DNA from: Chthoniobacteraceae bacterium
GTDB lineage: Bacteria > Verrucomicrobiota > Verrucomicrobiia > Chthoniobacterales > Chthoniobacteraceae
Direction: 5' to 3'
DNA length: 45,950 nt
Assembly (NCBI GenBank): GCA_031409335.1
Contig: JANNWY010000144.1
Span: 1-45,950, forward strand
The notes below the pieces were generated by a model. It saw only the letters and a program-made list of their open reading frames with translations. It did no database searches and was not told where the DNA came from. The translations under genes and the position numbers were made by a program. Positions 2,827 to 45,814 of this stretch are shown here, in pieces; positions within the stretch are counted from its first letter, which is position 1; each line of letters opens with the position of its first letter.

Positions 2827-4953
2827 CTACTGCATCACCGCGCGCACGCGGCCAAACACCGGGCTCGACGCGCCGTTTCCGGTGAGTGGTGCGGCTCCGC
2901 GGAAGGTGGCGCGTTCGCTGCCGATCGAGGGGCCGGGCGCGGTCGAGAGCGGGTTGAGGCTGGCATTCCATGCGTTGAGATTTCCGCTGCTCTCGACGTT
3001 GTAAGTCGGCGGTTGGGCGTCGATGCGGCGGGTGAAAGTCAGCGTGGGCCAGCGTTTCACGATGTTGCCATCGGCGGGGTCGGGGAGCAGGACGGTGCCG
3101 GGGGTGAGGCCGGTGCTGCCGTTGGGCTCGAAGGGGTCGAGGTCGAAGGCCCATTCGGCGAAGTTGTTCAGCCCATCGCGGTCGGGGTCGGCGGTGTAGG
3201 CGGCGGTGGGGCCGAGCAGGGGCTCGAAGCGCGCAAGCCAGGTGCTGCTATAGCGCGTGCCCATCACCTTGAGGTCGTCGATGCGGTTATTGCCGCTGCT
3301 GCTGGTCGCGCCGGTCAAGGTGTAGCGCAGGGTTACGTTCAGGGCGTTGTTCAGCTCGGCGATGTTCGCCAGATCGACGACGATGGGGAACTCCGGGTAT
3401 TCACTCGCCGTCGAGGCGGTGTTCAGGCCGGCGATGGTGGTAAAATTCGCCCCGTCGATACTCCAGCTCCACGTCCCGGTCGTATAGCCAGTCCCGGTGC
3501 CGCGGGTCATGAAATTCACGCTGAGCGCGGCCCAGCCGGATGCGGAGAAAACGAGATCGACCGTGCCGCCGTTGCCATTCGCCCCGATGAGCGAGAGCGC
3601 GACGTTCGGGTTTCCATTGCTGCCGGGAACTTCGGTCACGCCAGTGAATGCGTCGTTCGTGCCGTTCGGGCCGCTGCCGGCGGTGCTGCTCCATTTTGAA
3701 AAACGCACTTCTCCCGCACCCGCATTTGCGGGGACCGGGCTGACGAAGCGAGGCGCGACCGCATTGACCGGTGCATCGAAATTCCACGAAGCGATGACGC
3801 CGGTCGGCGCGACGGGGATCGAATCCGAGAGCGCCACACTCGCGGCGGCACCGGTGCCGCCATAGCCGACGCCGGGCGCGATCGCGAGCAGCGCGGTTTC
3901 GAGCGGCTCGGGCACCGCGTTCGCGATCGGTGTGACGTTCACGTTCACCGTCGCCGTGCCATTTGGGAAAACGATGCTGCCCGCTGCGGCGGCGCTGTTC
4001 CAGGTCACGCCCGATCCGGACAGCGTGTAGTCGCTCGCACCCGCAGTGCCGGAGGTGGTGAAATTCACGGTAATCGGCCCCGTGCTTGGCGGTGGGGAAA
4101 GGCGCACGATGAAACTGCCGCCGACGAGCGGTTGCTCGATTGCGGGGCTCACGCCGGGAGTGGACTGCGCGATCCGCAGCCCGCCGGTGCCCGCGCCCCA
4201 GATCGCCGCGACCCATTCAGGATGATCGATGAAGGGATTCCGATTGTGCTGATAGTTGGTGAAAATGCGGTCGTTGCGCGCCATCTCATTCGCATCCGGC
4301 GGATCGGCATTGTGCCAGGCGATGAGGGTGTCGAGATTCCCCATCTGCGGGCCGGTCGGCGCGGTGCCGACGAGTTCCAGATCGGTCGTATTCGCCTCGG
4401 TGCCATCGTAGCGCACAGCCATGTAGAAAAGCGCACGCGCGATGTCGCCTTTCTGCGCGCCGGGCGGTTCCCACGAGTTTGCGTCGCGCGAGCAGAGCGG
4501 CGCATTGGCGTGCGCGGGATCGACGAGGCCGCCGTCTGCCGCGTTGCTTTCGTCAAAATAGAGCACGCCGCGCGCGGTGTTCACTGCCGGGTCCGCGGGG
4601 ACGACGTGAAAGAGATCGCTGTCGTCTGGGCCAAGGTGCTCGCTGTTTCCGCGCGAGCGCGGCCAGAGATGCTCGCGGTTCCAGTTCGACGACGACTTCA
4701 GGATCGTCGTGGCGCTGTAGATCAACTGCATCCGCGTCGAATTCAACGGGTCTTCCCAAATCGCGCGGATCGGCGTGAAAAGCCCGAACTCGTACGGCAG
4801 CACCGTATGCCCGTCGATCACGTCGTGCAGCGCGGCTTTCAGCGCGAGTCCGCTCAGCCCGGTCGCAGAATCGTAGTAGCCCGCCGGCGGCTGCGCGGAT
4901 GCGAGCATTTGCGCGAGCAGGAGCGGAAGGAGCAGGGAGAAAACGCGGCGCAT
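2827..4953 (-). CDS. Secreted endonuclease I (EndA/Bsn-like) with Calx-beta/beta-sandwich domains and verrucomicrobial C-terminal domain
   Basis: Signal peptide, then WNREHLWPRS, DLFHVVPAD, KGDIARALFYMAVRY and QHNRNPFIDHPEW. Ends with a DPDRDGLNNFAEWAFDLDP...FGRVRA tail. Confidence 0.88.
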   Translation of the reverse strand: MRRVFSLLLPLLLAQMLASAQPPAGYYDSATGLSGLALKAALHDVIDGHTVLPYEFGLFTPIRAIWEDPLNSTRMQLIYSATTILKSSSNWNREHLWPRSRGNSEHLGPDDSDLFHVVPADPAVNTARGVLYFDESNAADGGLVDPAHANAPLCSRDANSWEPPGAQKGDIARALFYMAVRYDGTEANTTDLELVGTAPTGPQMGNLDTLIAWHNADPPDANEMARNDRIFTNYQHNRNPFIDHPEWVAAIWGAGTGGLRIAQSTPGVSPAIEQPLVGGSFIVRLSPPPSTGPITVNFTTSGTAGASDYTLSGSGVTWNSAAAAGSIVFPNGTATVNVNVTPIANAVPEPLETALLAIAPGVGYGGTGAAASVALSDSIPVAPTGVIASWNFDAPVNAVAPRFVSPVPANAGAGEVRFSKWSSTAGSGPNGTNDAFTGVTEVPGSNGNPNVALSLIGANGNGGTVDLVFSASGWAALSVNFMTRGTGTGYTTGTWSWSIDGANFTTIAGLNTASTASEYPEFPIVVDLANIAELNNALNVTLRYTLTGATSSSGNNRIDDLKVMGTRYSSTWLARFEPLLGPTAAYTADPDRDGLNNFAEWAFDLDPFEPNGSTGLTPGTVLLPDPADGNIVKRWPTLTFTRRIDAQPPTYNVESSGNLNAWNASLNPLSTAPGPSIGSERATFRGAAPLTGNGASSPVFGRVRAVMQ

Positions 4954-11377: not shown

Positions 11378-11737
11378 GTGAAACTGCTTTTGGAAAACCT
11401 CCCGCCCTCGCTGCAAGGCCAGCGCGAAACCCTCGCCCGCTGTCTGGAAGCGATGAACCGCGTGATGCCGCTGCGGGCCGTCTATCTCTTCGGCTCGCAC
11501 GCCCGCGGCGAAGCGCGCCCGGACAGCGATGTGGATTTGTGCATCGTGGCGGATGGCGCGGAGCGGCAGTTGCAGACGGTTCAAAAATTCAATGCGGCGA
11601 TTTGGGAGCAGCGACCGTTTCCCGCATTTACGCTGATCCCCATCACGCCGCAGCGTCTCGCGGAAAAGAAAATGGTCGGCGATCATTTTTACCAAACCGT
11701 GCTGAACGAAGGAGTGCCCATTGCCTCGGAAAACTGA
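11378..11737 (+). CDS. Minimal nucleotidyltransferase (MNT) antitoxin
   Basis: VYLFGSHARGEARPDSDVDLCIV (GS-x10-DxD). Overlaps the downstream HEPN gene. Confidence 0.88.
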   Translation: MKLLLENLPPSLQGQRETLARCLEAMNRVMPLRAVYLFGSHARGEARPDSDVDLCIVADGAERQLQTVQKFNAAIWEQRPFPAFTLIPITPQRLAEKKMVGDHFYQTVLNEGVPIASEN

Positions 11738-12119
11738 CTCCAGCAATCCTGCCGATTGGATTTGGATTTCTGAATCCGACCTCTTCGTGCTGGCGGACCT
11801 CGCGAACCGGCAAATGGGTTACGAAATCTGCCAGAGCAAGCTGGCGGAAGTGATCGAAAAAGTCCTCAAAGCGGAATTGATCCGGCAAGGCTGGTTTCTG
11901 GTGAAGACGCATGACCTTCTTGTGTTGTTGCAGGAGCTTGAACCGCGCGATGCTGCGTTGGCGGCTGAGTTCAGATCGCTCGTTGACGGGTATGCCACGG
12001 CATATTTCACGGGCCGGTATCCCGGTTTCGATTTGGAAGATCCCGATTGGCCTCCGTTGCGCGAACACATTGCGCAGGTGCAAGCGCTGCTTGCAAAAGT
12101 GAAAGCGCGGATCGTTTAG
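11721..12119 (+). CDS. HEPN domain protein
   Basis: W...SESDL, EKVLKAEL, KTHDL and RYPG motifs. Paired with MNT. Confidence 0.85.
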   Translation: MPRKTDSSNPADWIWISESDLFVLADLANRQMGYEICQSKLAEVIEKVLKAELIRQGWFLVKTHDLLVLLQELEPRDAALAAEFRSLVDGYATAYFTGRYPGFDLEDPDWPPLREHIAQVQALLAKVKARIV

Positions 12120-13793: not shown

Positions 13794-14747
13794 TTACGGC
13801 GTGACGACGCGGTAGAAAAACTGCCCCGCCGGGCCGGCCACCGTCGTGCTCGTCGTCCCATCGCCCGCGGAGGGCACATTTTTCAAAAACGTGAACGGTC
13901 CACCCGGCGCAGATGCGGTGAAGATGCGATAGTTGAGGCCCACTTTGCTCTGCCACGTCAGCGAGTAGCTCCCGGGCGCGATTGGCTGGAATGCTGTGAC
14001 GCGCAGCACCGATTGCGGCACGCGCGGATCGGTGTGCGCGATGAATTCGTGAAGGTTGTCGAGCCCATCCCCGTCGGTATCGAGGCCGGAGTCGGACACG
14101 TTTTTTTTCAGACCATAGAAAGCTTCCCAGCCATCGGGAATTCCGTCGCCGTCGCCGTCCAGCTTCCCGAGATAATCCGGCGCGCGGACGCCACGATTGG
14201 ACGTGCCGGTGTTGGTGATGACGCTCCAATTTGCGAAGAATTCCGACACCGCGTCGCCGGCGGGATTGAGCTGGATGTAGCTCCACTCGACCGCGCCAGT
14301 GGCAAAAGAAATCCGTTCCGAAACGTCCGCGCCACTCGCCGCGTTGAAGGTCTGTTTGGTGAAGTAACACGTCGTTGCTTTGAGGTCCCAAAGCTCGATC
14401 CGATTCGGACTGCGCAGCGCGACCACCATCTTGATCGTCGCCAGCGGAGCGCCTTGCGCGAGCCTCTGAAAGAACAGCGGCGTCGCGGCATCCACTTTTT
14501 TCACGATCGAAAATTCAGAGAACTTCAATTTCCCGACACCGGCACCGCCAGAGGTGCTCCCGATCGTTACGGGCGTTTCAGCGCCGGCCTCGAATGACGA
14601 TGCCTCGATCCATCCCGAGTAAATCGGATCGACCGATCCGCCAGCGATCACAGGTCCGCTTGACGGTGTCACTTCGAGAAAGACATCGAAAGCCGCATCG
14701 GCCCGCGACGTGAGCAGGACGAGGCAAAGAAGGAAAGCAGCGCGCAT
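13794..14747 (-). CDS. Signal-peptide-bearing Hcp (T6SS tube)-like protein with Ca-binding DxDxDG repeats and C-terminal domain
   Basis: Signal peptide ending ADA. Hcp-like core FDVFL..IAGGS.D..YSGWIE..SF...GGAGVGKLKFSEFSIVKKVDAATPLFF...ERISF..VEWSY...WSVITN. Tail DGDGDGIPDGWE..DTDGDGLDNLHEFIAHTDP...FFYRV. Confidence 0.8.
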   Translation of the reverse strand: MRAAFLLCLVLLTSRADAAFDVFLEVTPSSGPVIAGGSVDPIYSGWIEASSFEAGAETPVTIGSTSGGAGVGKLKFSEFSIVKKVDAATPLFFQRLAQGAPLATIKMVVALRSPNRIELWDLKATTCYFTKQTFNAASGADVSERISFATGAVEWSYIQLNPAGDAVSEFFANWSVITNTGTSNRGVRAPDYLGKLDGDGDGIPDGWEAFYGLKKNVSDSGLDTDGDGLDNLHEFIAHTDPRVPQSVLRVTAFQPIAPGSYSLTWQSKVGLNYRIFTASAPGGPFTFLKNVPSAGDGTTSTTVAGPAGQFFYRVVTP

Positions 14748-14760
14748 GGCGATCTGCGGA

Positions 14761-15375
14761 TTAATTGACTTCGAAAGTGGCGTTGTTGAGCACCTGACTC
14801 CACGACCGAATCACCGGAGTTTGTGGAACTCCACCCACGATCGGGACGGTCGTGATGCGCTGCGCTCCACAGAGCATCTTGATGTTCTCGCGGACCGTGT
14901 CGTCACCAACAGTCGTCGTGCTCGCGGTGCTGACGAAAAATACCAGCCTGAGTTCCACTCGGAAAAACACCGTCGGAGTTCCGCCGACCGGCCTCACGAA
15001 TTCGATCGTCAGATCTCCGTTCGTCTGCCCGCCCAAATTCTGTCCCGATGCCAAAAATGAGAAGATTTGCGGCGTGAGCCGATCCACCACTTTCGAGATG
15101 GCGATGGGATCAAACGCCAACTTTCCCACGCCAGCACCACCGGAGGCGGAGCCGATCGTCACCGGCGTGGACGCGCCCAGCGAAATCGAATCCAACTCCG
15201 CCCATCCGGCACGACCCGCGGCGGTCGATTCTCCGTTCCACGGCGACAAGCCATTCAGGAATTTTGCGTAAATGGTGACCTGCGCCATGGAGCGCGAGGC
15301 ACCGACAGTGAGCGCGACTGCGAGGACGAGCAGCGCGGCGATTCGGCGAAATGCAAAGGTGAATTTTGTATTCAT
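14761..15375 (-). CDS. Signal-peptide-bearing Hcp (T6SS tube)-like protein
   Basis: Signal peptide ending SMA, then GES...RAGWAELDSISLG..GGAGVGKLAFDPIAISKVVDRLTPQIF...RENIKM...WSQVLN. Confidence 0.78.
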   Translation of the reverse strand: MNTKFTFAFRRIAALLVLAVALTVGASRSMAQVTIYAKFLNGLSPWNGESTAAGRAGWAELDSISLGASTPVTIGSASGGAGVGKLAFDPIAISKVVDRLTPQIFSFLASGQNLGGQTNGDLTIEFVRPVGGTPTVFFRVELRLVFFVSTASTTTVGDDTVRENIKMLCGAQRITTVPIVGGVPQTPVIRSWSQVLNNATFEVN

Positions 15376-44164: not shown

Positions 44165-44420
44165 GCCATTTCCCGTCACTTCCTTGATCTTCTTCGCCAG
44201 TTCGTCGGTTTCCATTTCTAACACCGACGACTTTTTAAGTTCGATGCTCTCTCTCCCAAGCGGCGCTAGTTGTGCGATCTCGCACTCCTCGCCGAAGTCG
44301 AGCGACGCCCAGCCTGCCGCGGTATGAAGCCGTGCGAGCCTTCCGCGATACGGCGCAGCGTGGCCAGATCGCCGTGGTCCTTCGCGGCGGTCAGCTTGTG
44401 ATAAGTCTCCTGCTTATCCG
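44165..44420 (-). pseudogene. Degraded fragment, possibly of a J-domain-containing protein
   Basis: Broken minus-strand frames read DKQETYHKLTAAKDHGDLATLRRIAEGSHGFI, GWASLDFGEECEIAQL and LEMETDELAKKIKEVTG. The family match is from memory only. Confidence 0.35.
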
Positions 44421-45814
44421 CCAGCGCCGTTGCCGCAAATTCCCGCTCCTGTTACGCGTTCGCCTGCCGGTATGCCGAAGCGTTTGAAGAGCGCCTTGAA
44501 GAATATCTTAACCATGTCGCGTGCTGCATCGCCAGCCAGTTCAGCCGAGCCGAAGCGAAAGACATGATAGCCAGATAACTTTAACTCTCGGTCCGCAGCG
44601 ACCATCTTCGCGTAGCGTCCGCATTCGGCTCGTCCGTCAGCGGTAGCATAATGATGTTTGCCATCGACTTCGATTACGACGCGAGTTCCGTAAGGTAACA
44701 GCAACAGAAAGTCCATCCGGAACCGCCGCAACGCGTCCGGCCCACGCTCCCTCACCGTTTTGGGATCCCAGTGGAGCCATACCTCAGGAAGCAGGGCGGG
44801 TAGGTCCGGGATTGCACTGCCGAAGCCGCTGTAGAAAGCCTCGAACAGCAAGAGTTGAGGAGGCGAGTTCTCTGACAGGCTTTCGCGCAAGCGCCGATAG
44901 AGCGTCGTCTTAGCCTCTTTAGCGTTCGCAATTCCCTTCGTCTCGCTCCACCACAATTGCAGATCGCGCCACCGAAGTCCTTCCGCGCCGATTGGTCGAT
45001 CATAGACGAGAACCTTGTCAGCATTCGTCACAATCTCGACATCGTTGTTCACTGCGTCTCGAAACCGAAGGTCAGGCTTCACCGACGAGGCAAAGATGAG
45101 GTTTTTGGGGCGTCCCATCGCCGCCTCGCGAGTTGAGACGATGGTGAACACTGGGTATCCGCCTTCCGCGTCGGTTTCGCGGATCTCGACGCCGCACGCA
45201 CTAAGTGGGCTGTTCACAACCTGCACAAAACGGCGCTGGGCTGCTTCGTCTGGACGCACGTTAGACGAAGCGAGCCCTTCGATGAAAAGGGCGAAACGCC
45301 GATTCGATGCGTCGAATGCGCCAAGTTTGTCGAACAGTTCCTCGGCCGACCAGTCTCCGGGGTTTCTGTGAACATGCTGCCGAATCGCTGCACGGAGCGA
45401 ACGATCTGGACCGCCTAATAGTAAGCTCAAGTCGTTGTCGAGAACCCAAAGTTTGTCCAAAAGTTCATCGAATCGCTGAGCATCCAGATAAATTTCCTCG
45501 CCAGCTAGGGAGCGAGCAACATCCCGCCGAAGCTTCTTTGGAATCTCGATGGCAGTGTCAGCCCAAAGGACATCCTGAATTTCATTCCTTTTGGAGGGCG
45601 TTGGTGTATGCAGTTCGAGGAAGCGATCGGCTAAGCGAGGAAGATCGGCGTCGGATAGCGCCTCAAAGCTGGCGGAGATTCTGTCGCGCTTAGAACCATC
45701 GGTGCTGGGAACAGGTAGGCCGAGGTTCTCGCAGATTGCTGGAAGCGTCTCGTGGGTGCCCGCATCCTTGAGGGCGATGATGAGTGGACTGAGAAGATTG
45801 CGAACACGGGCTAG
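44414..45814 (-). pseudogene. AbiJ-NTD-like / Vsr-DUF559-type nuclease gene (putative anti-phage), 5' end removed by IS insertion
   Basis: The frame is open for 118 codons upstream of the TTG at 45460 with no start codon. Motifs KNLIFAS..KPDLRFRDAVNND, ALLPEVWLHWDP, MDFLLL..VVIEVDGKHHY and DRELKLSGYHVFRFG. Confidence 0.72.

Follow-up and report, generated by a model that had tools for sequence, protein, structure and literature searches.

Hcp is usually viewed as a hallmark of the T6SS, a protein that assembles inside the cytoplasm and leaves it solely through sheath contraction. What, then, might two adjacent Hcp genes with predicted export leaders do in a bacterium in whose genome no T6SS was detected? 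The question is raised by a 45,950-nucleotide stretch of DNA from a Chthoniobacteraceae bacterium, hereafter called the window. The two genes, A and B, both lie on the minus strand and are separated by 13 bp, with birA on one side of the pair and a convergent gpsA on the other, the stop codons of gpsA and gene B abutting each other:

14761..15375, minus strand: gene A, a short signal-peptide Hcp of 204 aa (P0001), based on its ORF, PF05638 and a structural model
13794..14747, minus strand: gene B, a signal-peptide Hcp with a C-terminal module (the tail), 317 aa (P0002), based on its ORF and PF05638
15400..15428, minus strand: putative promoter, TTGACG-17-TAAAAC

The promoter candidate sits in the 99-bp gap between birA and gene A; it was read from the sequence and missed by the consensus scan, and is a weak lead. 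The promoter/terminator scan returned 0 promoters and 2 terminator-like sites, which is the level found in shuffled sequence. Some other genes of the window also drew attention. Two small ORFs immediately before plsY-gpsA (11378-12119, plus strand) resemble a putative nucleotidyltransferase and HEPN toxin-antitoxin pair. The segment 27422-35046 (plus strand) looks like a secreted copper/haem module: the gene for an MbnP plus di-haem peroxidase protein precedes that for a 1,934-aa fusion of galactose-oxidase-like/Kelch, PA14, PKD and di-haem cytochrome c parts. Finally, an AbiJ_NTD3 protein with a weak DUF559 match, encoded after groEL (44414-45460, minus strand), is a possible anti-phage candidate.

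First, both genes are members of the Hcp family, as had been proposed from the sequence of the window. The PF05638 cut-off (23.5 bits) was passed by both P0001 and P0002 (50.5 and 49.3 bits, respectively), and the genome-wide search placed the matches as follows:

14881..15240, minus strand: PF05638 match in gene A, 51.2 bits
14277..14666, minus strand: PF05638 match in gene B, 51.7 bits

The P0001 model matched a solved Hcp1 (4w64) in Foldseek with an E-value of 9.8e-12, and its VIA-align comparison with 3eaa gave a Z of 16.4 and an rmsd of 3.4 with 156 aligned; eCIS and phage tubes reached a Z of at most 10.6, below Hcp. The pLDDT of this model was 77.6, and the Hcp helix region appeared in it as a low-confidence coil. 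The fold evidence refers to the P0001 model only, P0002 being assigned by sequence family. The pair has family and fold in common with the Hcp/TssD proteins (A. baumannii Hcp1 4W64, P. aeruginosa Hcp1 1Y12 and E. tarda EvpC 3EAA), with which it also shares the GxGxGK loop as well as K-x-x-D-x-x-[ST]-P at the entry to the helix. Unlike them, it carries N-terminal export leaders and scores under the cut-off (58.9 bits) of the T6SS tube TssD subfamily TIGR03344 (20.0 bits for A and 18.5 bits for B), and unlike that of T6SS Hcps, its genome has no detectable sheath, baseplate, spike or PAAR. The Hcp domains of A and B are about 30% identical overall and fall in two old, well-supported clades of the tree. 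The related-locus searches returned 2 and 1 loci, L019 being matched at 27% identity with an E-value of 8e-4.

Second, the lack of T6SS genes, which the initial annotation had noted for the window, extended to the genome searched (7.9 Mb, 98% complete, 326 contigs). Genes A and B were the only PF05638 matches in it. TssB, TssC, TssF, TssK, the VgrG hub, PAAR and the spike OB-fold had 0 matches genome-wide in searches that were positive in control genomes; Bacteroidota TssC (PF17541) and the gp19-type tube (PF06841) also had 0 matches genome-wide, these two models being ones that no control genome matched either. The sheath (TssB/TssC), baseplate and spike by which T6SS subtype i is recognized were not detected in the genome, and instead of the clustered sheath, tube, baseplate and spike of an eCIS or tailocin we found a lone sheath gene with no hub or spike. 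This phage-tail-sheath gene (PF04984, PF17482; G000:C83:70102-71214, L080) lies on another contig, with unrelated neighbors and no tube or baseplate gene seen nearby. It was considered as a partner of the pair and rejected, as it stands alone and is missing from 4/4 other genomes with the pair. Among the 34 genomes with a tailed (gene B-type) Hcp, which are kin and whose counts are not independent, TssC was found in one (G871, which also has its own leaderless Hcp), the control genomes G193, G199 and G171 being positive in the same search; PF05954 was present in 4 of the 34 and absent from the other 30.

Third, both proteins appeared to carry conserved export leaders:

15283..15375, minus strand: residues 1-31 of the gene A product, predicted to be its signal peptide, with an RR pair (sequence and heuristic)
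14694..14747, minus strand: residues 1-18 of the gene B product, predicted to be its signal peptide (sequence and heuristic)

The heuristic, used in place of SignalP, requires a hydrophobic 10-mer with a basic residue ahead of it. It was positive for 16/16 A-family and 31/32 B-family proteins, the single negative B-family protein being truncated at the N terminus, and for 0/10 cytoplasmic proteins of the window; the signal peptides that had been read on the two genes are thus conserved by this measure. Small residues occupied positions -3 and -1 of the aligned site in 16/16 A-family and 25/32 B-family proteins, and the leader of gene A would be cleaved after SMA. As judged by the heuristic, A and B both have the features of a Sec (SPase I) substrate, namely a basic n-region and a hydrophobic h-region that are conserved, and the Sec route is likely for both. 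An RR pair was present in 9/16 A-family and 0/32 B-family leaders, and a strict Tat-like motif in 3/16 A-family leaders; because of the RR pair, Tat remains an option for gene A.

It is very improbable that A and B are ordinary cytoplasmic orphan or extended Hcps of a T6SS absent from the assembly, with leaders that are mis-called starts. Such Hcps are known according to the available texts of two reports (PMC5471719; 10.1101/2023.03.26.534264), and an assembly in 326 contigs with one orphan phage-type sheath gene leaves some room for the idea. However, a T6SS tube subunit should be leaderless, and by the heuristic neither A nor B is. Hcps encoded in T6SS operons of relatives have no leader, their first residue being the mature start, whereas gene A and gene B both lack a Met where the canonical Hcp begins, and the leader shape is conserved in both families. 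The lack of TssC in 33 of the 34 genomes beside positive controls, and the isolation of the sheath gene, also speak against this explanation.

To what extent do the two genes belong together? PF05638 surveys were carried out in 60 relatives, 400 genomes of the phylum and 400 genomes of the class (the samples overlap) and were complemented by alignment searches, after which the loci were read. We found 37 loci with a tailed Hcp, and in 36 of them a short Hcp lay directly upstream on the same strand. The conservation of the pair in Verrucomicrobiota without a T6SS, which the initial annotation had suggested checking, was borne out, with 36/37 loci paired and 33/34 genomes TssC-negative. The phylum sample alone gave 9/9 paired loci, the pair being present in 9/400 genomes. 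Tails were recognized by HMM in 33 of the 37 loci and by eye in 3 (78-87-residue end), and one was frameshifted. Three tailed genes were seen only via their fetched partner, so lone divergent tailed genes may be missed; without these three the pairing is 33/34. The exception, in G932, is a truncated Hcp that stands alone next to a tRNA-like stretch. Leaders were detected by the heuristic in 35/37 tailed proteins and 33/36 short partners, of which two (G009 and G928) are broken at the 5' end. The pairs in these genomes (L051 and L134, respectively) have frameshifts or a lost 5' end, which may reflect either decay or assembly error. Six further putative pairs, deduced solely from contigs of equal length, were left out of the 37-locus count, one of which (c104912) is included in the alignment of 36 pairs, and G899:C115 was left out as the contig end cuts its second gene.

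The neighborhoods of the pair consist of changing housekeeping genes and were different in each locus inspected. Within pairs, A and B are 20-45% identical, and the closest short Hcp of a tailed protein was its own neighbor in 15/36 cases, a similarity that can come from shared descent alone; in trees, some tailed genes stood beside their own neighbor (96 in G630 and 91 in G154). A repeated independent origin of the pair is not claimed, as the AU test failed to reject a single origin (p = 0.052), and a mirror correlation of r = 0.92 was set aside as evidence of coupling, as it reflects co-descent plus one outlier pair. No A+B fusion protein of 371-2000 aa was found, which is weak evidence. Short exported Hcps without a tailed neighbor occurred in about 19 fetched loci, so A need not always have B. 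In other Verrucomicrobiota, tandem arrays of 2-4 leaderless Hcp genes were observed (L119, L120, L121 and L147 in G381, G476, G467 and G865, respectively).

What distinguishes gene B is its tail (residues 197-317), which is composed of DxDxDG repeats and a terminal domain of about 72 residues:

14019..14159, minus strand: DxDxDG part of the tail, bacterial TSP3-type, residues 197-243 (TSP3_bac PF18884, 26.7 bits)
13797..14012, minus strand: terminal domain of about 72 residues ending in FFYRVVTP (HMM, genome-wide)

The repeats likely bind calcium. The HMM of the DxDxDG part matched 52 ORFs of the genome, and the tail HMM initially found C-terminal matches in 44 ORFs, a number that rose to 169 over three iterations. 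A leader-like start was seen in 89 of these 169 ORFs; this figure is too low, as the search for starts was restricted to Met codons of the first 120 residues. In an Atlas search, look-alikes of the terminal domain (0.93) were unnamed Verrucomicrobiota clusters. Within the window itself, an endonuclease I protein (2827-4953, minus strand) has the same DxDxDG repeats and [FY][FY]R ending. The reported likeness of the tail to other secreted proteins was correct, and its occurrence at the end of some 170 ORFs means that it is not specific to Hcp. A T9SS C-terminal domain (Por_Secre_tail) is a small terminal domain that, within one lineage, is found on many secreted proteins with no other relationship. 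The tail is similar in being a small end domain common to many secreted proteins of a lineage, and different from that of T9SS cargo in that the T9SS-CTD models of Pfam and NCBIfam gave no match to P0002. We infer that the tail may be a general sorting or tethering module of this lineage. An anchoring role for the tailed paralog fits this picture, whereas the role of a dedicated cap, suggested along with it at first, does not, the tail being generic.

The explanation that we favor, with a probability of roughly one half, is that A and B are exported by Sec and form a mixed ring, which the tail of gene B holds at the surface, in a cell with no detected T6SS. Both proteins would cross the inner membrane by Sec and have their leaders cleaved, and mature A and B would then assemble into a mixed hexamer. 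A would be the main ring subunit, without a surface tag of its own, and the tail of B would hold the ring at the cell surface or route it there. If B supplies the surface tag and A travels or stays with it, it can be understood that A sometimes occurs alone and B hardly ever does. Export with cleavage, ring formation and the presence of A and B in one ring are each inferred. The ring would most likely serve as a multivalent surface scaffold or binding ring. Several tailed subunits of relatives have passengers of up to about 1,100 residues between Hcp and tail, including Ig/cadherin-like domains; the ring of this window would carry the tail only. The fusion of Hcp to PEP-CTERM, RTX, Planc_extracel, Ig and dockerin domains in other proteins points to a surface destination. 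For the hetero-oligomer proposed in the initial annotation, support is indirect and comes from the pairing rule and the available text on Hcp2-Hcp3 (PMC13035841).

The tail and the export of the pair could also be read in another way, namely as a periplasmic cargo chaperone whose lumen binds unfolded or small exported proteins and whose tail docks on the export machinery that serves the other proteins bearing it. The available text on Hcp2-Hcp3 describes Hcp rings that hold effectors in the lumen and heterohexamers that set cargo specificity (PMC13035841), and the tail ties the product of gene B to a large secreted set. We nevertheless regard this role as unlikely: no conserved cargo gene lies by the pair, since every inspected neighborhood differs; the patchy occurrence of the pair in the phylum sample is not what one would expect of a central component of a common pathway; and the fusions to PEP-CTERM and RTX argue for a location outside.

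To return to the mixed surface ring, A and B have a segment in common:

15118..15168, minus strand: the 17 shared residues in gene A (70-86), aligned with the strand 2-strand 3 loop of Hcp1
14526..14576, minus strand: the 17 shared residues in gene B (58-74; sequence comparison)

The segment, TPVTIGS(A/T)SGGAGVGKL, is identical in 16/17 residues, 11 of which are encoded by different codons, and is a local identity peak relative to the rest of the Hcp domains. Its counterpart in Hcp1 is the loop with GGGGAGK at its end. The near-identity on different codons that had first been noticed was confirmed; the segment is not a family trait, as a GxGxGK-type motif was found in only 3/32 tailed and 6/16 short relatives. 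Recent gene conversion is not supported as its source, as only 5/16 identical residues use the same codon; old conversion or selection may equally account for it. In the available text of one study, ring stacking of Hcp1 is mediated by this loop (PMC4650826). Among 36 aligned pairs, 25 had a tailed loop at least 2 residues shorter than that of the short partner, 10 had loops of about equal length, and in 1 the tailed loop was longer. Mean loop lengths were 34.4 residues in short Hcps, 30.3 in tailed Hcps and 35.9 in leaderless Hcps. The pair of this window is one of the 10 equal cases, both loops being of full length.

Further information on ring geometry came from chains with several Hcp domains. 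The profile search with gene A yielded 3,106 representatives, and among the best 150 of them 36 had at least two complete Hcp domains: six domains in 26 chains, two in 6, three in 2, four in 1 and seven in 1. The summed-score search favors multi-domain chains, not the number six. Six-Hcp chains include P0086, P0097, P0101, P0102, P0104, P0113, P0123 and P0142, among others, with one cluster named Gemmataceae; the chain of P0113 alternates ABABAB. Pfam domain counts were made on 29 of the multi-Hcp chains, and several of these chains carry RTX, Planc_extracel, Ig, MBG or dockerin domains; PEP-CTERM was present on 4/4 checked among other matches of the gene A profile. The six-domain chains point to a six-membered ring. 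Being distant relatives that belong to other lineages, they support the ring geometry of exported Hcps generally and not directly that of this pair. Hcp1 fusions also appear in solved hexamers of GspE, Vps4 and TrwK.

Two pair-bearing, TssC-negative genomes also encode a signal-peptide VgrG in a housekeeping context. G797 (L166:3986-7942) and G767 (L167:5113-8628) encode signal-peptide proteins in which an FTYQG-type N-terminal domain is joined to a full VgrG (GPD hub, OB fold and gp5 trimer), with an S74 chaperone in L167. Could the exported Hcps then build a tube or filament, in which rings of the short subunit stack, a tailed ring anchors or caps the stack, and an exported VgrG forms the tip in some lineages? 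We consider this a tentative possibility. The loop of short Hcps is near the canonical length and that of tailed Hcps is shorter, as for an end piece; the stacking loops of the window are both complete and nearly identical; and the signal-peptide VgrG of the two genomes would provide a tip. In a wider form, equally tentative, Verrucomicrobiota would have domesticated the inner parts of a contractile tail as a sheath-less surface appendage assembled outside the cytoplasm, with A rings stacked on a hetero-ring that the tail would anchor and, for certain lineages, a VgrG-fibre cap. However, VgrG, PAAR and TssF had no match in the genome of the window, PF05954 is missing from most tailed-Hcp genomes, and covalent six-domain chains with bulky passengers suggest single rings. 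Together with the shortened loop of most tailed partners, these chains weaken the tube or filament originally envisaged for the pair.

The shortened loop is also relevant to the possibility that A and B are co-regulated and act separately, each as homo-rings or as monomeric binding modules. According to the available text (PMC10696396), HilE is an Hcp homologue with a shortened loop that has been repurposed and is a monomer, and since the tailed loop is shortened in 25/36 pairs, this counts against a ring. The occurrence of short exported Hcps alone and the low identity of A and B within pairs are in agreement with separate action. On the other hand, separate action fails to predict that the tailed gene is always second and is alone in just 1/37 loci, and chains of six, two and three domains suggest that ring geometry was retained in exported relatives. 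We consider separate action less likely than a mixed ring at the surface.

How does such a ring compare with the Hcp systems described so far? A model for the pair is provided by Hcp2-Hcp3 of Bacteroides fragilis, an obligate heterohexamer of 3:3 or 4:2 composition in the available text of its report (PMC13035841). Like A and B, these are two diverged Hcp paralogs, which depend on each other for the ring; unlike A and B, they form a cytoplasmic ring within a complete T6SS that carries an effector, and the available text describes no leader or sorting tail. Extended Hcps (Hcp-ET) are rare, toxin-bearing and mostly found in Enterobacteriaceae/Escherichia, according to the parts available of PMC5471719 and 10.1101/2023.03.26.534264. 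They resemble gene B in their C-terminal extension and in often lying away from the main operon, whereas the extension of gene B is a generic secreted-protein module, accompanied by a leader, in T6SS-negative Verrucomicrobiota. In place of the toxin domain and adjacent immunity gene of an Hcp-ET, gene B has its generic tail and a convergent gpsA as the next gene. HilE of Salmonella (PMC10696396) is likewise an Hcp homologue repurposed outside the T6SS; unlike A and B, it is a cytoplasmic monomeric regulator encoded by a single gene, with no export described in the available text. No description of signal-peptide Hcps, six-Hcp chains or the tail was found in the open-licence PMC and bioRxiv literature, subscription journals aside, and the main texts of two extended-Hcp preprints, as available, do not contain the terms 'signal peptide', 'PEP-CTERM' or 'Verrucomicrobia'. 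The fold is known, but the A/B system matches none of the described ones and lacks what defines a T6SS, an eCIS or an Hcp-ET; it is real and conserved, and apparently undescribed in print.

The leader-bearing pair recurs throughout the phylum in T6SS-negative genomes, and therefore an Hcp annotation, or an Hcp in a secretome, need not mean a T6SS. The pair points to an unrecognized envelope structure in Verrucomicrobiota. It would also allow the assembly of a hetero-ring beyond the cytoplasm to be tested with just two proteins, and it gives access to a C-terminal module that is so far uncatalogued; should A, which has no tail, depend on tailed B to reach the surface, this module would be a sorting signal.
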